Sequence record: PX393110.1 | DNA: 64,000 nucleotides | From: a phage | Strand: one strand, 5' to 3' | Part shown: positions 182 to 63,461 of the stretch, in pieces | How positions within the stretch are numbered: the first letter of the stretch is position 1 | Layout: each line of letters starts with the position of its first letter | Notes under the pieces: model-generated | Told to the model about the DNA's origin: nothing | Databases searched by the model: none | Seen by the model: the letters and a program-made list of their open reading frames with translations, nothing else | Translations under genes and position numbers: made by a program

Positions 182-517
182 TCATAAGAACATTTTGACA
201 AGATGTTTAGTACCGTTGATAGCAGCTTTCTTAGCAGCCGACTTAACATGAGCTTTAACTTTCTTATGTAAAGTCTTGGACTTAGCCTTATTTTTAAGGA
301 GTCGTCCGGCAGCTTTAGCCCTACGCTTGATTCTGTTAGCTGATTCGGAAATAGCAATACCTTCCTCATCAGTAACATCATCAACATTAGACGAAGCTAT
401 CATCAGTAACTGATCATCGGTTAAACCAGCTGCTATGGTTTTGACGAATATTCCTTCATCGACATCACCAACAGCATTAAGGAGATCCTGTGATTTTGAC
501 ATAATCTTCCCATACAT
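182..517 (-). CDS. hypothetical protein with Lys-rich basic C-terminus (start probably ATG at 500-502)
   Basis: ORF track; coherent acidic N-terminus and basic C-terminus. Confidence 0.4.
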   Translation of the reverse strand: MYGKIMSKSQDLLNAVGDVDEGIFVKTIAAGLTDDQLLMIASSNVDDVTDEEGIAISESANRIKRRAKAAGRLLKNKAKSKTLHKKVKAHVKSAAKKAAINGTKHLVKMFL

Positions 518-971
518 TAATTACTTCCTTACCCAGAGATTTAGCATGGGTTACACAGTTACCTGTACCACCCTTGCTGCCATCCCATAAGGCTAATCCC
601 TTCTGACTACGGTTAACCATGTAACGGTTACGCACCATCATCTTGAAAGAATCATACCCAGGCTCGGAAACTATAATTGTGCGACGACTTCTCCTGCAGA
701 GCTCAGTCCATTTTTCTACATCTGCAGATCGCCACATCTTGGGCTGGTCAATCATAGGGACTGCTGCGAAATATGGTATTCCGAGGTTAGCACATGCTTG
801 AGCACATGCCATGTCCCATCCTAAAGCCATACCCACGAACCAGCAGTCGACCTTATTTTCTTCGGTCAACCTCTGGATATGATGTTCGGCAAACTGGGTA
901 AGCTGATCATGGCTAAAGATATCCCAGCCACCCAGTTTATCTGGCCTATGACCAGTGACGAACATAAACAT
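477..971 (-). CDS. hypothetical protein, possible Rossmann-like (SLOG/DprA-like) nucleotide-binding fold
   Basis: 164 aa ORF; glycine-rich GSKGGTGN and GxxxG motifs; family assignment is weak inference. Confidence 0.4.
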   Translation of the reverse strand: MFMFVTGHRPDKLGGWDIFSHDQLTQFAEHHIQRLTEENKVDCWFVGMALGWDMACAQACANLGIPYFAAVPMIDQPKMWRSADVEKWTELCRRSRRTIIVSEPGYDSFKMMVRNRYMVNRSQKGLALWDGSKGGTGNCVTHAKSLGKEVINVWEDYVKITGSP

Positions 972-1312
972 TACTTCTTCTCTATCTTGGCCTGCTTAGC
1001 CTTAACTAAAGCCAATGCGTTAGCCAGTTTAGCAGAAGTATCCTGCGGACCATCTTCTTCGAGCTGTTTCTTCAGGGACTCCATACGATCGGTAGTCCCT
1101 TTAGTATCCATCTCGATTAATTCGTTGATGGTCGACCCGCCGACGTTAGGTAACTTGCCGAGTTGCGACAAATCCTTAACTTCGGGGATCTTAACGTGAA
1201 GTTGAATAGACTGGGATGCTCTCGCGAATGACCCAGCACGACGATTGTCTCCTACCTTATTATATAGGGAAGATAGGTTACCCAGGAACGTAATGATATC
1301 AGCAGTTTTCAT
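971..1312 (-). CDS. helix-hairpin-helix motif protein
   Basis: ATG at 1310-1312 with GGAGG RBS; LPNVGGSTINEL resembles an HhH DNA-binding motif. Confidence 0.45.
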   Translation of the reverse strand: MKTADIITFLGNLSSLYNKVGDNRRAGSFARASQSIQLHVKIPEVKDLSQLGKLPNVGGSTINELIEMDTKGTTDRMESLKKQLEEDGPQDTSAKLANALALVKAKQAKIEKK

Positions 1313-28951: not shown

Positions 28952-31936
28952 ATGTCTTATAATCCGATCTTAGAAGGATCAACCTGGCCGGAGACTATTC
29001 GTCGCTTAGAAAAGACGGATAGGGCGGAAGGTGGGCCACTAGTTACTAATTCTGAGGATGAACCAGTATCTGGACATATTAATCATCCAATAACTCAGTT
29101 AGCTACCAGAACTTCCATTTTAAAAAAGTATAATTTATCGATAATTAATAACACTAAAGAACAGTGGAAATTATTACTCGGTGACTTAGGACTAACTCTT
29201 GTTGGTACTTTTGAAGAAGGCGCTACTACTAACAGCAAGACTGATGCTGTTTGGCATATTGCTGGTGGTCAGTGTTACGTGTGGGGTGGTTTACTCCCTA
29301 AGACTGTATATGCTAACTCCACACCGCTAACTACTGGTGGTATCTCTGCTGATGCTTGGGTTAGTATTGGTGATGCCGCACTGCGAGGGCAAATATCAGA
29401 CCCGGACGGTGCGACAAAATACCCTGAATTGCAGATTGCTAGATGGCGTGACACTTTTGACCCTCGCGGTTGGGGAGCTAAAGGTGATGGATTAGTTGAT
29501 GATACTGTGGCTCTTAATAATCTGTTAAACGCTGCGCCAGTGGGTCAGAAAATTAATGGTAACGGTAGAACCTATAAAGTATCTGTGCTTCCAGATATTA
29601 GCCGATTCGTCAACACTCGTTTCGTTTATGAGCGTATTCCTGGCCAGACGCTTTATTATGTGTCTGACGAGTTTGTTCAGGGTGAGTTAATTAAAATAAC
29701 CGACACGCCTTATTACAATGCCTGGCCGCAGGATAAAGCGTTCGTTTACGACGATGTTATTTACTGTCCGTTCATGGCTAGCGATCGGCACGGGGTTAGC
29801 AGGCTGCATGTATCCTGGGTTCGCTCAGGTGATGACGGACAGACCTGGACGACCCCGGAGTGGCTAACCGACCTGCACCCTAATTACCCGACAGTTAACT
29901 ATCACTGTATGAGTATGGGTGTGATGCGCAACCGCCTATTTGCGATGATTGAAACCCGTACATTGGCATCTAACGCACTGGTGACTTGCGAGTTATGGGA
30001 TCGGCCCATGTCCCGTAACTACCATCCGACAGGTGGCATCACAAAAGCCGCCAACCAGCCTGTGGCTGTAATTACCATCCCTGAACACGGTCTTTTTGCT
30101 GGGGATTTTGTTAACTTCTCAAACTCTGGGGTGACTGGCGTTTCAGGGAATATGACTGTAACTTCAGTTATTGACCGCAACACGTTTACAGTTACCACGC
30201 CAAATCAACAAGCATTCGACCAAAATAACTCTACCAGCCGCTGGCATATGGGGACATCGTTCCATCAGTCACCATGGCGTAAAACCAGCCTTGGATTGAT
30301 CCCCATGGTTACCGAGGTTCACAGTTTTACCGCCATCAATAACGATTCATTCATGATGGGATATCACCAGGGTGATGTTGCTCCGCGTGAAGTCGGTATG
30401 TTGTATTTTCCGGATGCGTTCAACAATCCTGGGCTTTATCAGAAACGGCATATTCCTGCTGAATATGAGCCAGATGCGGCAGAACCCTGCGTTAAGTATT
30501 TTGACGGTGTTCTTTATGTTGTAACCCGTGGAACCAGGTCTGATCGTCTTGGTAGTTCTCTGCATCGCAGTAGCGACCTGGGGATTACCTGGCAATCACT
30601 GAGGTTTCCGAATAACGTCCACCACTCTACCCTGCCATTCGCTAAGGTAGGAAACGAACTGATTCTTTTCGGCACCGAACGCGCCGACAACGAGTGGGAA
30701 GCAAACGCACCGGATCAACGATATTTCAGTTCTTACCCACGGACGTTCTACACGAGAGTGAACCTCGACACCTGGAACCTGAATAATACTCAGTGGGTAA
30801 ATATCACTGATCAGATTTATCAGGGTGGTATTGTTAACTCTGGCGTCGGTGTCGGATCGGTCGTCGTGAAAGATAGTTATATCTATTACATGTTCGGTGG
30901 GGAAGACCATCTGAACCCATGGACATATGGAGATAACTTAGAGAAAGACCCATTCAAATCAGACGGTCATCCCTCAGATTTGTATTGTTACAAAATGCAG
31001 ATCGGTCCAGACAATCGTGTTTCTCGTGATTTCAGGTACGGTGCTGTACCTGACAGAGCGGTTCCAGTGTTTTTTGATACGAATGGAATTCGCACTGTTC
31101 CTGCGCCTATGGAGTTCACCGGTGATTTAGGGTTAGGTCATGTGACCATTAGAGCCAGCACCAGTAATAACGTTCGCTCTGAAGTTTTAATGGAAGGTGA
31201 GTATGGGTTTATTGGGAAATCTGTACCTACTAATAACCCAGCAGGACAGCGCACCATATTTTGCGGTGGCGAAGGAACCAGTTCTTCTACTGGTGCACAG
31301 ATTACGCTTTATGGTGCTAATAACACAGCTTCTCGCAGGATAGTTTACAACGGAGCTGAGCATCTGTTCCAGACTGCTGACGTTAAGCCTTATAACGATA
31401 ACGCGATTGCGCTCGGTGGGCCTAGCAACCGATTCACTACTGCATACCTCGGAAGCAACCCTATTGTTACTTCTAACGGGGAGAAGAAAACAGAGCCGGT
31501 ATTTTTTGACGATGCTTTTTTAGATGCTTGGGGCGACGTTCATTACATCATGTACCAGTGGTTGGATTCTGTACACTTGAAAGGAAATGACGCTAGAATT
31601 CATTTTGGCGTAATTGCTCAGCAGATCCGCGATGTATTCATTGCTCACGGTCTGATGGATGAGAATAGCACGGATTGCCGCTATGCCGTTCTGTGTTACG
31701 ACAAATATCCTCGCATGACAGACATGGTGTTCTCTCACAATGAAATCGTTGAACACACTGACGAGGAGGGTAATGTAACTACCACGGAAGAACCTGTATA
31801 CACCGAGGTGGTTATTCACGAAGAGGGTGAGGAGTGGGGTGTGCGGCCTGATGGAATTTTCTTTGCTGAGGCAGCATTCCAGAGAAGAAGACTGGAGAGA
31901 ATCGAAGCCAGACTTTCCGATCTTGAAAAGAAATAG
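28952..31936 (+). CDS. sialidase-like tailspike (endosialidase-like) with C-terminal intramolecular chaperone domain
   Basis: 994 aa; two Asp-box motifs (SGDDGQTW, SSDLGITW); GAKGDG motif; C-terminal S74-like chaperone region; distinct codon usage. Confidence 0.7.
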   Translation: MSYNPILEGSTWPETIRRLEKTDRAEGGPLVTNSEDEPVSGHINHPITQLATRTSILKKYNLSIINNTKEQWKLLLGDLGLTLVGTFEEGATTNSKTDAVWHIAGGQCYVWGGLLPKTVYANSTPLTTGGISADAWVSIGDAALRGQISDPDGATKYPELQIARWRDTFDPRGWGAKGDGLVDDTVALNNLLNAAPVGQKINGNGRTYKVSVLPDISRFVNTRFVYERIPGQTLYYVSDEFVQGELIKITDTPYYNAWPQDKAFVYDDVIYCPFMASDRHGVSRLHVSWVRSGDDGQTWTTPEWLTDLHPNYPTVNYHCMSMGVMRNRLFAMIETRTLASNALVTCELWDRPMSRNYHPTGGITKAANQPVAVITIPEHGLFAGDFVNFSNSGVTGVSGNMTVTSVIDRNTFTVTTPNQQAFDQNNSTSRWHMGTSFHQSPWRKTSLGLIPMVTEVHSFTAINNDSFMMGYHQGDVAPREVGMLYFPDAFNNPGLYQKRHIPAEYEPDAAEPCVKYFDGVLYVVTRGTRSDRLGSSLHRSSDLGITWQSLRFPNNVHHSTLPFAKVGNELILFGTERADNEWEANAPDQRYFSSYPRTFYTRVNLDTWNLNNTQWVNITDQIYQGGIVNSGVGVGSVVVKDSYIYYMFGGEDHLNPWTYGDNLEKDPFKSDGHPSDLYCYKMQIGPDNRVSRDFRYGAVPDRAVPVFFDTNGIRTVPAPMEFTGDLGLGHVTIRASTSNNVRSEVLMEGEYGFIGKSVPTNNPAGQRTIFCGGEGTSSSTGAQITLYGANNTASRRIVYNGAEHLFQTADVKPYNDNAIALGGPSNRFTTAYLGSNPIVTSNGEKKTEPVFFDDAFLDAWGDVHYIMYQWLDSVHLKGNDARIHFGVIAQQIRDVFIAHGLMDENSTDCRYAVLCYDKYPRMTDMVFSHNEIVEHTDEEGNVTTTEEPVYTEVVIHEEGEEWGVRPDGIFFAEAAFQRRRLERIEARLSDLEKK

Positions 31937-49397: not shown

Positions 49398-49428
49398 TTA
49401 ACAGCCTTTCAGCACCTAAAAAGAGCGG
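49398..49428 (-). promoter_or_regulatory. conserved promoter-like motif
   Basis: TTAACAGCCTTTCAGCACCTAAAAAGAGCGG. Confidence 0.5.
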
Positions 49429-49429
49429 C

Positions 49430-49663
49430 CTACGAATCTTCCAGATCTACTAAGTATTCGATCTTGAGTCTGAATGGCCCCATATACTGGGTAATAGCCA
49501 TAATCCTGCCATTCTCCTTTTCCCATATCCATGGTGCTGGTGGCTTAGGAGTGTCCTTAGGAACATAACCCATATTGGTTAGTTTAGCTATTGCTACTCT
49601 TCCAACAGCCTTCCCACCAGCCTTAGACTGGGAGGTAATATACTCTTCAGTAACTACGATCAT
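49430..49663 (-). CDS. hypothetical protein
   Basis: 77 aa ORF. Confidence 0.45.
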   Translation of the reverse strand: MIVVTEEYITSQSKAGGKAVGRVAIAKLTNMGYVPKDTPKPPAPWIWEKENGRIMAITQYMGPFRLKIEYLVDLEDS

Positions 49664-50192
49664 TAATAGTGTTCCTCAACATAATCAAATAATAACTCCT
49701 AAACTAATGGACGTAGGAACTACCGGCCCCTTATCTAATTTAACCAATTGGAGTGTAGCGGCGGCTGGCAGAGCCGCCGCGTACACGAGACTAAGCTCCT
49801 CCGGAGACTCTGACCTTGCCCACCCGAGCCTCCCCCTGGGATTCGCTCCCTAAAGCCACTTTGGGCTTTAACTCGCTCACCCTACGCGTGACGCAAGGTA
49901 TACTACGTAGATGCCCCTAAGAATGTTGAGAGGGTATAAACCTTAGTGTAGTTCGCATCAGTCCCCACTAAGGTCTCGACAATACCTTCATCCTCTATCC
50001 AGTTCCGGACAATCTGAATAGGGACACTACCTAACTATTCGTAATGCAACCATAGCCGGAGACGTAACTTAATCGTGCCCTATGTATACGCATTACTTAA
50101 TGAGAGTATATAGCTGCTCTTCCCAGACTATCGAATCTGTTTTACGGAAGAGCAACTATTAGGCCGTTAGGTGCCTTAATAGAACTCAGCTA
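49664..50192. other. ~530-bp non-coding region with multiple strong hairpins (candidate structured RNA or replication/regulatory element)
   Basis: no ORF above 60 aa on either strand; 9-bp GC stem GCGGCGGCT/AGCCGCCGC at 49759-49781; 11-bp stem at 50113-50158; nested inverted repeat at 50041-50096. Confidence 0.4.
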
Positions 50193-50363
50193 TTAGTAAA
50201 GTTTCACTACTTTGTTAGATACCCAGGACTGAGGGTTGGCAGATTCCACCATTTTGTCGTAGGCACGATCTGCTTGATCTTTAGTCTCAAATTCCGCAAT
50301 TACCGAGTGAACTGATGGAGCATCCCGAGCAACAATACTACTTATAATAAGTAACTTAAACAT
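50193..50363 (-). CDS. small hypothetical protein (56 aa)
   Basis: internal ATG at 50361-50363; longer track ORF overlaps the upstream gene. Confidence 0.35.
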   Translation of the reverse strand: MFKLLIISSIVARDAPSVHSVIAEFETKDQADRAYDKMVESANPQSWVSNKVVKLY

Positions 50364-50715
50364 GAGCCATCCTCCTGGAGCGGTCGCAGGAGTCCCAGAT
50401 TGCGTTATATACTCTCTTACCATCTTCGTAAGATAGACCGTAAGCATCACCATTACAGTCAATTAACGCACTTACTCCTCCCAGCTTAACTTCCGGACCG
50501 TAAATATCGTTATAGACATGGATTACACCATTAGCGCTTACCCAAGTCCATGTATCTTTACGAATCATCCGGATTTCGTCATTATCCAACATTCTGATAA
50601 ATTCGGTAGGGTCCCCAGTACGGATCATATTCTCATAAGCTAGTCGCTCTTCCGATTTAGTCAGTAAGGGAATTGCTGGAACAGTTTTAAATATAGATTT
50701 TAATTTCTCAAACAT
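50356..50715 (-). CDS. hypothetical protein
   Basis: 119 aa; preceded by tandem duplicated SD sequence. Confidence 0.5.
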   Translation of the reverse strand: MFEKLKSIFKTVPAIPLLTKSEERLAYENMIRTGDPTEFIRMLDNDEIRMIRKDTWTWVSANGVIHVYNDIYGPEVKLGGVSALIDCNGDAYGLSYEDGKRVYNAIWDSCDRSRRMAHV

Positions 50716-50740
50716 ATCTTAATATCTCCTAATATCTCCT
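50714..50740 (-). repeat. tandem 10-bp direct repeat forming duplicated Shine-Dalgarno
   Basis: AATATCTCCT x2 on plus, i.e. AGGAGATATT AGGAGATATT in sense orientation. Confidence 0.8.
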
Positions 50741-50752
50741 AAGACTATTCAC

Positions 50753-50776
50753 ATAGAGCACCATCAGATGCTCTAT
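50753..50776 (-). promoter_or_regulatory. conserved intergenic stem-loop (ACATAGRGCACC family)
   Basis: 7-bp stem ATAGAGC/GCTCTAT with 10-nt loop. Confidence 0.45.
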
Positions 50777-50793
50777 AGGAATAACCTCTACAG

Positions 50794-50825
50794 TTTAACA
50801 GCCTTTTGACCGTACAAAAGAGCGG
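50794..50825 (-). promoter_or_regulatory. conserved promoter-like motif
   Basis: TTTAACAGCCTTTTGACCGTACAAAAGAGCGG. Confidence 0.5.
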
Positions 50826-61898: not shown

Positions 61899-61930
61899 TT
61901 TAACAGCCTTTTAGCACCCTAAAAGAGCGG
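61899..61930 (-). promoter_or_regulatory. conserved promoter-like motif
   Basis: TTTAACAGCCTTTTAGCACCCTAAAAGAGCGG, 30 nt upstream of ligase start. Confidence 0.5.
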
Positions 61931-63228: not shown

Positions 63229-63406
63229 GATAGAGTTCCTTATGCGAAGTGGAAGATAGCAACAACAGCAGCCCAGAATGCAAAGCTCAGACCAAATACC
63301 AGAGCCCAGCTGTAACGATCTACGAAGCGGATGAGTTTAGTTGACATTATTTTCTCCAAAATTAGATTATACTAAGTTAGTGGACTGGAGCCGCCGGAGC
63401 CGCCCC

Positions 63407-63435
63407 ACCCAAAAGAACGGGCTTTAAACCCGTTC
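63407..63435 (-). terminator. rho-independent terminator
   Basis: 7-bp stem GAACGGG/CCCGTTC; minus-sense U-tract; adjacent GAGCCGCC direct repeat. Confidence 0.6.
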
Positions 63436-63461
63436 ATAATTCGTTTATTTGAAAAATAATT

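Follow-up and report, generated by a model that had tools for sequence, protein, structure and literature searches.

The interval between two small phage genes

The sequence analysed here is a 64,000-nucleotide (nt) stretch of phage DNA from sequence record PX393110.1, referred to throughout as the window. Its largest stretch poor in open reading frames (ORFs) spans positions 49664..50192, between an upstream gene for a protein of 56 amino acids (aa; 50193..50363) and a downstream gene for one of 77 aa (49430..49663), both on the minus strand. I refer to this whole non-coding interval as RNA-1 and number it along the minus strand, such that RNA position p corresponds to window coordinate 50193-p; the features of RNA-1 described below all lie on that strand. 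A preliminary description of this DNA had proposed three candidates for the interval, namely a structured non-coding RNA, a replication origin or packaging-related site, and a degraded mobile intron. The first of these is strongly supported by the analysis reported here, through a structure conserved by compensatory changes, the lack of a conserved ORF, and the existence of a paralogue that has a promoter motif of its own.

The window is 97–99% identical to the Escherichia phages vB_EcoM_IME392 and EP_H11 (111–116 kb), neither of whose records annotates anything in the gap. These two phages have been grouped with the SP15/YerA41/RP13-like phages, in which hypermodified thymidine is known or predicted (PMC12686479; bioRxiv 10.1101/2025.03.26.645540). 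Among other phages, Acinetobacter phage Ab1-TPeters (59% aa identity) and Ralstonia phage RP13 (58%) are the closest as judged by terminase. The minus-strand block around the gap encodes an NAD-ligase, a PolX-like protein, a glycosyltransferase, a dCTP deaminase, an Rv2179c-like exoribonuclease and an NADAR protein, as well as a putative dUTPase annotated in EP_H11 and IME392.

Comparison with related phages, which the preliminary description had recommended, showed that RNA-1 is kept in all 15 related loci recovered, that is in IME392, EP_H11 and ∼13 contigs from Logan/ENA metagenome assemblies; these contigs were found through the flanking proteins, and all retain the gap. Two of them, L018 and L024, carry truly divergent copies of RNA-1 (75–78% identity to the window). 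The copy in L019 is 94.7% identical, with the changes clustered in one domain, and those in L032 and L025 match the window except for one replaced block.

Six-frame translation of the interval reveals stops in all frames, and its part at 49854..50192 holds no ORF of at least 40 aa on either strand. The preliminary description had gone further and reported no ORF of at least 60 aa anywhere in the interval, which is not correct, as a plus-strand ORF of 92 aa with a TTG start (49575..49853) overlaps it. L018 and L024 lack this ORF and L019 retains only 35 aa of it, and because of this it is, on comparative grounds, not a gene. No ORF is common to the RNA-1 lineages across the related loci. On either side, the 56-aa gene terminates in TAA TAG, and the 77-aa gene possesses its own Shine-Dalgarno sequence and ATG. 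The overlap with the 92-aa ORF, which affects part of the region in the window clade, is what could be cited for a decayed coding sequence, or for a functionless spacer with incidental hairpins. The stops in six frames and the absence of a shared ORF argue against this explanation, as do a level of conservation equal to or above that of the neighbouring genes and a number of compensatory changes far above controls (see below), and I regard it as scarcely credible.

The GC content reaches 52–57% at 49700–49999, compared with ∼43% in the flanks. The minimum free energy of the RNA-1 interval is -185 kcal/mol, against -161.8 ± 6.1 for dinucleotide shuffles (z = -3.8; 0/100 shuffles as good); the plus strand of the interval also folds beyond its dinucleotide shuffles (z = -3.1). 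When the divergent L018 copy was folded alone, the same helices were obtained (z = -3.2).

Conserved structure and domain organization of RNA-1

Between the window and L018, nucleotide identity is 76% for the RNA-1 core, 70% for the 56-aa gene and the 119-aa gene located upstream of it, and 80% for the 77-aa gene, which is highly conserved. Conservation in RNA-1 takes the form of long invariant blocks (GCACGAUUAAGUUACGUC, AGUUAGGUAGUGUCCCUAU, UAGAGGAUGAAGGUAUUGUCGA, UUAUACCCUCUCAA and UUAGGGG) alternating with co-changing stems, and the long unpaired blocks are more strictly conserved than the stems. RNAalifold predicted 140 pairs, 25 of these with changes on both sides; one long-range helix in that prediction, between RNA positions 23–32 and 478–487, was dropped, as it is broken in L018 and L024. 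In the curated structure (124 pairs, 16 sequences), 97.7% of the cells are paired, compared with 34–45% when partners were slid, and 27 of the 124 pairs are doubly changed yet still pairing, compared with 2–7 in the slid controls. None of 500 shuffles reaches the observed values. The covariation counts for domains A and B are not joint with those of the paralogue RNA-2 described below, whose 5′ half was misaligned to that of RNA-1 by MAFFT. On this alignment, the predicted fold of RNA-1 is kept by compensatory substitutions across lineages that are 75–99% identical. Neither a conserved small gene nor an absence of structural conservation, the two observations that the preliminary description had named as arguing against its proposal, was found in the relatives. 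The consensus energy is lower for the minus strand (-135 kcal/mol) than for the plus strand (-119 kcal/mol), and G-U is seen in 25 pairs of the helices, A.C in 7. G-U is thus tolerated and A.C rare, and therefore selection appears to act on one RNA strand, of the same sense as the neighbouring genes.

The hairpins reported in the preliminary description are all real, with coordinates that were off by 1–3 nt. From the 5′ end, the first element is the hairpin AGGC-ACCUAACG-GCCU (50161..50176, RNA 17–32), which never varies and is for this reason beyond covariation testing. It is followed by a long hairpin (50110..50159, RNA 34–83) of ∼20 bp, in which an outer stem of 14 bp is separated from an inner stem of 6 bp (50124–50139) by an asymmetric internal loop of 6 nt. 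This is the element initially described as an 11-bp stem with a long loop at 50113..50158; the stem is confirmed, but its arms are 14 nt each (50110–50123 and 50146–50159) and enclose 22 nt. Across three different stem sequences, 11 of the 14 outer pairs are doubly changed, and pair 38/79 is found as U-A, U-G, C-G and C.A within the close clade. The long hairpin has no counterpart in RNA-2, and is possibly a processing or insulating hairpin. The probable functional core then extends over 49753..50109 (RNA 84–440), from AUACUCUCAUUAAG to the end of a GC-rich hairpin, and corresponds to the part that aligns with RNA-2.

Domain A (50028..50108, RNA 85–165) consists of a closing helix, a middle helix GUAAUGCG/UGCAUUAC (50041–50096) and an inner helix CAUAG/CUAUG (50051–50084) that encloses the invariant loop GCACGAUUAAGUUACGUC; the last two are the nested inverted repeats that had been noticed at 50041..50096. 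The middle helix includes two compensatory pairs, and the same fold is predicted from the L018 sequence by itself. In RNA-2 the loop block is found again as GACUUAAGCUAAGUC.

Domain B (49930..50025, RNA 168–263) is the most sequence-constrained part of RNA-1. It comprises GUCCCUAUUCAG/CUGGAUAGAGGAU (49990–50025), GA-GGUAU/AUACC-UC (49930–49989) and an 11-bp hairpin (49938–49976), the latter with 4 compensatory pairs while the other helices are nearly invariant. A CCGG in the domain A loop (50056..50059) and another in a hairpin loop of domain B (50005..50008) could act as the 5′ and 3′ partners of a kissing-loop interaction joining the two domains: CCGG/CCGG in the window clade becomes CCGA/UCGG in L018 and L024. 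This covariation amounts to a single evolutionary event, and the kissing loop is therefore tentative.

Domain B is followed by a hypervariable linker of 4 nt (49921..49924, RNA 269–272), which reads AUUC, ACCU, GCUC or ACUC between the invariant CUCUCAA and UUAGGGG; these four alleles occur among genomes that are otherwise 98–99% identical. The invariant UUAGGGG (49914–49920, RNA 273–279) precedes a hairpin whose length differs among lineages (49899–49913, RNA 280–294). Around GUCCCUA and UUAGGGG, two mutually exclusive pairings compete.

Domain C (49813..49899, RNA 294–380) is prone to swapping. Its outer stem occurs in four versions, all of them paired: ACCUUGC/GCAAGGU, AGGUUGC/GCAACCU, GGUUAGUC/GACUAACC and, in RNA-2, GCCUGCG/CGCAGGC. 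The central hairpin UUAAAGCC-CAAAGU-GGCUUUAG (49850–49871) is conserved, and for the inner part of the domain two candidate folds are predicted, either one long hairpin or a three-hairpin junction. The whole domain is replaced in L032 (925–1060) and L025 and heavily substituted in L019, with the remaining RNA-1 ∼99% identical, a pattern that points to module swapping or diversifying selection inside the RNA gene. Of the 71 columns that vary among the 12–14 close relatives, ∼55 belong to domain C, 4 to the linker and 5 to the loop of the GC-rich hairpin, and RNA positions 1–268 contain only 3 variable columns outside pair 38/79. Judging from these alignments, the 3′ domain of RNA-1 is a hot spot for module swapping, and its 5′ two-thirds are almost invariant.

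Two hairpins complete the core. The first is small, CUCC-GGA-GGAG (49796..49806, RNA 387–397), and UCCGGAGGA is invariant in RNA-1; L018 and L024 have A-U in place of C-G as its closing pair, and RNA-2 has AUCC-GGUA-GGAU at this place. The second is a bulged, GC-rich hairpin of 14 bp (49753..49786, RNA 407–440; core 49758–49780), the outer stem of which, GUGUA/UACAC, becomes GAGUA/UACUC in L018 and L024. The 9 bp and 5-nt loop initially reported at 49759..49781 are correct for its core stem, but the arms are at 49758–49766 and 49772–49780, and rather than being pure G+C the stem is made of 8 G-C pairs and 1 U-A pair. A scan of 49664–50192 identified no intrinsic terminator; the GC hairpin has no U-tract after it, and is followed by UCCAAUUGG with no direct U-run. 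It is a probable 3′ end or stabiliser of RNA-1. Its loop (49767–49771) is found in both orientations among near-identical genomes (CTGCC/GGCAG and CCGCC/GGCGG), and therefore undergoes inversion across a perfect palindrome, the sequence of the loop being unconstrained.

Since this flip shows that the palindrome inverts at the DNA level, it could be taken, along with the strong dyad symmetries of the interval, as the mark of a DNA-level element, such as the replication origin or packaging site of the preliminary description, a recombination site or cruciform-forming DNA. However, the region is GC-rich and has no iterons, no AT-rich block that could serve as an unwinding element and no direct repeats beyond chance 10–15-mers. 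The cumulative GC skew, which the preliminary description had advised plotting, is monotonic and passes straight through the interval, with no shift. The tolerance of G-U and rarity of A.C imply selection on one RNA strand, unpaired blocks more conserved than stems are typical of a folded RNA, and RNA-2 sits behind a promoter motif. A role as DNA element is therefore very improbable, and the origin or packaging site is not supported.

Beyond the core, the tail of RNA-1 (49664..49752, RNA 441–529) also forms the 5′ untranslated region (UTR) of the 77-aa gene and is poorly conserved, with only 52% identity to L018 and a 25-nt insertion or deletion (indel). Within it, GUUCCU (49715–49720) can pair with the Shine-Dalgarno sequence GAGGAA (49672–49677), and a tail hairpin includes 2 compensatory pairs.

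A paralogue of RNA-1, and independence from the neighbouring genes

A second RNA, which I call RNA-2, is located outside the window, ∼2.5 kb past its left end. In EP_H11 (OP688485) it spans ∼101,016–101,500 (L049 ∼517–1000, plus strand), and the IME392 copy is in L050. Similarity to domain C of RNA-1 was detected by blastn (80% over 76 nt, E = 3e-12). Aligned globally, the two RNAs reach a score of 203.5, compared with 112 ± 9.4 for shuffles (z ∼ 9.7), and this alignment also brings the A/B junction, the GAUGAA block and the loop of domain A into register. Shared by the 3′ halves are the outer stem, with its compensated changes, the central and small hairpins and GGGG(G/U)AGGCUCGGGUGG. Each half also has a GC-rich hairpin at its end, the two being unrelated in sequence; in RNA-2 this is a different hairpin of 15 bp in the same relative place, with a further CCGCTCTTT box ∼45 nt on.

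RNA-2 lies directly behind a copy of the promoter motif described below (L049:481–516), and its primary transcript would begin ∼7 nt after TGTTAAATT. It is found ∼350 nt downstream of a tRNA-Met gene, ends at its own GC hairpin, and is separated from the next gene by an AT-rich spacer of ∼180 nt. Between EP_H11 and IME392 it is 99% identical, while the adjacent DNA diverges. A full-length, diverged paralogue behind its own promoter motif and beside tRNA-Met speaks for a free-standing RNA gene more than for a leader, intron or origin; RNA-2 is the strongest argument for such a gene. It starts at the equivalent of RNA-1 position ∼76–84, so it has neither of the two 5′ hairpins of RNA-1. This suggests that the core of RNA-1 is ∼84–440 (50109–49753), and that the long 5′ hairpin is an accessory of the copy that needs release from a polycistronic transcript. 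In the EP_H11 stretch that includes RNA-2, Rfam finds only a tRNA. Next to RNA-2, at L049:98–353 (EP_H11 100,597–100,852), the tRNA-Met is followed by two elements resembling a T-arm plus ACCA, CCTCGGTTCGACTCCGAGGAATCACCA and a ∼75-nt piece ending in AGGGTTCGATCCCCTACGTGGCACCA. They are called by neither ARAGORN nor Rfam, and may be odd tRNA-like genes or minihelices.

The genes that flank RNA-1 vary independently of it. The 56-aa gene is always directly 5′ of RNA-1, yet the two recombine independently: L024 combines a 56-aa gene that is 97% window-like with an RNA that is 75% window-like and 92.6% L018-like. In the same contig, an unrelated 62-aa ORF replaces the 77-aa gene, which is thus not an obligatory partner, and L018 has an extra gene of 93 aa upstream. 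Recombination joints are found at both ends of RNA-1. The 77-aa protein is 86% identical at the aa level to a Seuratvirus homologue that has no such RNA upstream (L003, L004). This homologue is a protein of the Queuovirinae phages GottfriedDienst, WildeMaa and phiG7, in which its gene has the DpdA 7-deazaguanine module on one side and the DNA polymerase genes on the other. The similarity suggests, as far as sequence comparison goes, that the gene was recently transferred horizontally between unrelated phage groups. In Pseudomonas phage QdP_Psa3, a distant homologue of the 119-aa protein is encoded among tightly packed genes, with no gap. As its neighbours vary independently, RNA-1 behaves as a module of its own. 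The neighbouring proteins have no Pfam domain and match only PHROGs of unknown function. Complementarity between the conserved loops of RNA-1 and the rest of the window is at chance level, and no sequence in the E. coli genomes of the host resembles RNA-1.

These observations bear on whether RNA-1 could instead be a cis-acting leader, that is a giant riboswitch-like, or protein- or temperature-responsive, 5′ UTR that controls the Shine-Dalgarno sequence of the next gene. In all lineages a conserved UCCU/GUUCCU can pair with the Shine-Dalgarno sequence of the downstream ORF, though the latter is 25 nt farther in the window clade; the compensated tail hairpin agrees with this idea, and the exclusive pairings around UUAGGGG and GUCCCUA could form a switch. 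However, the downstream gene to be controlled is not the same throughout, being the 77-aa gene in most lineages and the unrelated 62-aa ORF in L024, and the 77-aa gene works without the RNA element in Seuratvirus phages. The tail, at 52% identity, is the least conserved part of RNA-1. RNA-2 forms a unit from promoter to hairpin with its AT-rich spacer before the next gene, and the size and number of domains of RNA-1 are far beyond those of known riboswitches, with no Rfam match. I therefore consider a leader function unlikely, albeit worth keeping in mind.

Searches for known families, including the Rfam and ARAGORN runs suggested in the preliminary description, returned no match on RNA-1. Rfam 15 (4227 models) gives 0 matches at gathering score in the whole window; at E≤10 on 49400–50500 there is one chance snoRNA match, in a neighbouring gene, and at E≤5 nothing is found on the element in the divergent L018, L024 and L032. 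ARAGORN predicts no tRNA or tmRNA in the window. The conserved catalytic core of group I introns (P3–P9; RF00028) is not matched at E≤10, nor are the ROOL and GOLLD models of Rfam, even at permissive thresholds.

These results also weigh on the degraded mobile intron of the preliminary description and, more generally, on any relic of an intron or ribozyme, be it a self-splicing group I or II intron devoid of its ORF and exon context or another self-cleaving or mobile RNA. RNA-1 resembles phage group I introns in its size, its multi-helix fold with long-range pairing and its residence in a phage, and the domain swapping suggests mobile parts. Against this, neither the window nor the divergent copies match any Intron_gpI, group II or self-cleaving ribozyme model, even at E≤10; the ORFs on both sides are complete and independent, with their own stop and start; relatives devoid of the element have no split gene; RNA-2 is not inside a gene either; and there is no homing endonuclease or reverse transcriptase nearby. 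An intron or ribozyme origin is consequently improbable.

The distribution of RNA-1 is narrow. In a blastn search of phages, plasmids and E. coli genomes (5,426), it matches only IME392 and EP_H11. Scans of IMG/VR with the conserved blocks, exact or degenerate, gave 0 matches, and no locus carrying the flanking proteins of RNA-1 was found there. Conserved-block scans of JGI metagenomes yielded 3 chance matches, two of which are inside an enoyl-CoA-hydratase-like gene, and those of GTDB genomes yielded 0 matches, then 4 chance matches encoding ‘EDEGIV’ in unrelated proteins. Scanning with the GC-hairpin pattern produced chance matches in GC-rich contigs only. I also built two covariance models, R1 (domains A+B) and R2 (domain C, from RNA-1 and RNA-2). 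With these, there is no third copy in the window or the rest of EP_H11, and hence exactly two copies per genome, and no copy in 80 of the 110 kb of Ab1-TPeters or in a 6.3-kb stretch of QdP_Psa3. In Ab1-TPeters, ∼3 kb (L046:16800–20200) are annotated with tiny ORFs only, on both strands, yet include tRNA-Arg and tRNA-Met; this is probably a non-coding RNA islet over-annotated with ORFs, and matches neither R1 nor R2.

With regard to genome layout, the coordinate sums of matched features in the window and EP_H11 (terminase versus RNA locus; 3812–49664) differ by ∼2.2 kb, and therefore an indel of ∼2.2 kb distinguishes the window phage from EP_H11, in the structural or early region. IME392 exceeds EP_H11 in length by ∼5 kb.

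Transcription, interpretation and known RNAs

A promoter-like motif, (A/T)(A/T)CCGCTCTTT-N10/11-AAAGGCTGTTAA(A/G)nnGT, occurs 7 times in the window, always on the minus strand and 20–85 nt before start codons; its copies, given as the starts of AAGGCTGTTAA, are at 61910, 55874, 50805, 49408, 46689, 45614 and 1342. There are at least 13 copies in the genome, and the motif is kept in divergent contigs. It reads like an extended -10 element with an upstream box. EP_H11 has a protein annotated as RNA polymerase (RNAP) beta′-like (29676–31244), and therefore a phage polymerase may use the motif, which is possibly read by a phage-modified or phage-encoded RNAP. The copy at 50795..50825 (CCGCTCTTT-N10-AAAGGCTGTTAA), upstream of the 119-aa gene, probably starts a unit composed of the 119-aa gene, the 56-aa gene, RNA-1 and the 77-aa gene, if the motif is indeed a promoter. 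The next copy (49398..49428) marks the start of the following unit, and this motif after the RNA-1 unit is kept in L018, L024, L019, L032 and L033. Within RNA-1 there is a sigma-70-like match, TCGATA-18 nt-TATACT (50105..50134, 9/12 matches), which is a weak lead only; the region holds fewer sigma-70-like matches than shuffles do.

Two other non-coding stretches of the minus strand were noted. The 5′ UTR of the 119-aa gene (50716–50800) contains a perfect hairpin, TATAGAGCATC..GATGGTGCTCTATG, and a tandem duplication, TAGGAGATAT-TAGGAGATAT, that includes the Shine-Dalgarno sequence. A second ORF-free gap, at 63229–63461, has a terminator-like hairpin AACGGGTTTAAAGCCCGTTCTTTT, a G-rich run and a TAGTATAAT-type -10 element, and is probably a host-type early promoter region.

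Taken together, the comparisons show a conserved, strand-specific RNA fold of several domains, non-coding, that exists as two paralogues, one of them behind a promoter motif of its own. The interval 49664..50192 is best explained as the gene for such an RNA, read in the same sense as the surrounding minus-strand genes; to this explanation, including the mode of action proposed below, I give a probability of roughly 0.6. As read from the comparisons above, RNA-1 is an RNA gene of ∼360–440 nt that is conserved in a rare group of E. coli phages and belongs to no catalogued family; with RNA-2 it forms a family of large structured phage RNAs that is new and restricted to one clade of cultivable coliphages, each genome having two members.

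As to its mode of action, a scheme can be proposed. Transcription of RNA-1 would begin at the phage promoter motif ∼590 nt upstream and take in the 119-aa and 56-aa genes as well. The ∼20-bp 5′ hairpin that is missing in RNA-2 would then serve as a processing or insulating signal freeing the core, with the GC hairpin forming or protecting the 3′ end. The freed core of ∼360 nt (RNA 84–440) would act in trans as a stable folded RNA, and may do so by itself, in oligomers formed through the covarying CCGG loops, or together with a protein, like ROOL and GOLLD. Domains A and B would represent the functional core, and domain C an exchangeable peripheral module. I find it rather probable that the core is a stable trans-acting RNA of this kind, released by its 5′ hairpin and bounded by its GC hairpin, with an active part in A and B and an exchangeable periphery in C.

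Several points weigh against this interpretation. The transcript of RNA-1, its ends and its stability are all inferred, and RNA-1 has no promoter motif of its own. The comparisons draw on ∼5 independent RNA-1 lineages and two RNA-2 sequences, and the alignment used to derive the curated structure also served for the counts, such that the statistics given above are not probabilities. The most conserved helices, in domain B and at the closure of domain A, show no variation, and are outside the reach of covariation; the kissing loop is supported by one substitution event; and pairing of GUGUCCCUA with UAGGGGCAU is a mutually exclusive alternative that is equally possible. In all lineages the tail can mask the Shine-Dalgarno sequence of the gene that follows, which fits a role in cis. 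Finally, neither the Pfam and PHROG searches on the neighbouring proteins nor the search for complementarity within the window led to a partner protein or target.

A more far-reaching proposal, which I put forward only as a speculation with somewhat less than even chances, is that RNA-1 and RNA-2 found a new class of “ornate” phage RNA. Domains A and B would be its catalytic or assembly core, perhaps oligomerising through CCGG, and domain C and the linker would be specificity modules under diversifying selection in an arms race between phage and host. So defined, the class would be confined to a rare clade of coliphages with a predicted hypermodified-thymidine DNA and an RNAP beta′-like gene.

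New classes of large structured RNA are rare, and the few that are known (ROOL, GOLLD, OLE, raiA) formed unexpected RNA-only architectures. The distribution of RNA-1 is very narrow and the sequences are few. It is however present in the cultivable E. coli phages EP_H11 and IME392, which makes the role of large phage RNAs testable in the best-understood host, and handles for structure-function work are offered by the pair of paralogues, the naturally swapped domains and the hypervariable linker.

Among known systems, phage group I introns (T4 td, nrdB, Twort; RF00028) are like RNA-1 in size and in their multi-helix fold; unlike these, RNA-1 has no core match, no interrupted gene and no homing endonuclease, and is flanked by independent genes. 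For one sub-element, the long 5′ hairpin, there is a likeness to the RNase III processing hairpins carried by the early mRNA of T7 (e.g., R1.1). It is one of shape only, namely a ∼20-bp stem with an asymmetric internal loop, placed between a coding region and the next unit of a polycistronic transcript.

The phi29 pRNA, of ∼120–174 nt, acts in trans, and its function depends on a 4-nt loop-loop pairing between two loops. It resembles RNA-1 as a phage-encoded structured RNA with a covarying 4-nt loop-loop pairing, tentative in the case of RNA-1; this is a loose functional analogy, but it has a different fold and stems from small podoviruses with protein-primed genomes, and nothing links RNA-1 to packaging.

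The closest parallel is provided by ROOL and GOLLD, which are roughly 580 to >800 nt in size. RNA-1 is smaller, at ∼360–440 nt, differs from them in sequence, fold and host clade, is located inside an operon of small genes and not in a tRNA island, and has two paralogues per genome. ROOL and GOLLD assemble into RNA-only cages, involve kissing loops and are often found near tRNA genes (PMC12286853). Like RNA-1, they are RNAs of several hundred nt encoded by phages or prophages, with many helices, conserved loops, a covarying loop-loop pairing, of which RNA-1 has a candidate, and no known protein partner. RNA-2 is likewise encoded beside a tRNA gene, tRNA-Met, a likeness of kind and not of homology. 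By this analogy, my best guess is that RNA-1 is a stable trans-acting RNA of the ROOL/GOLLD sort.

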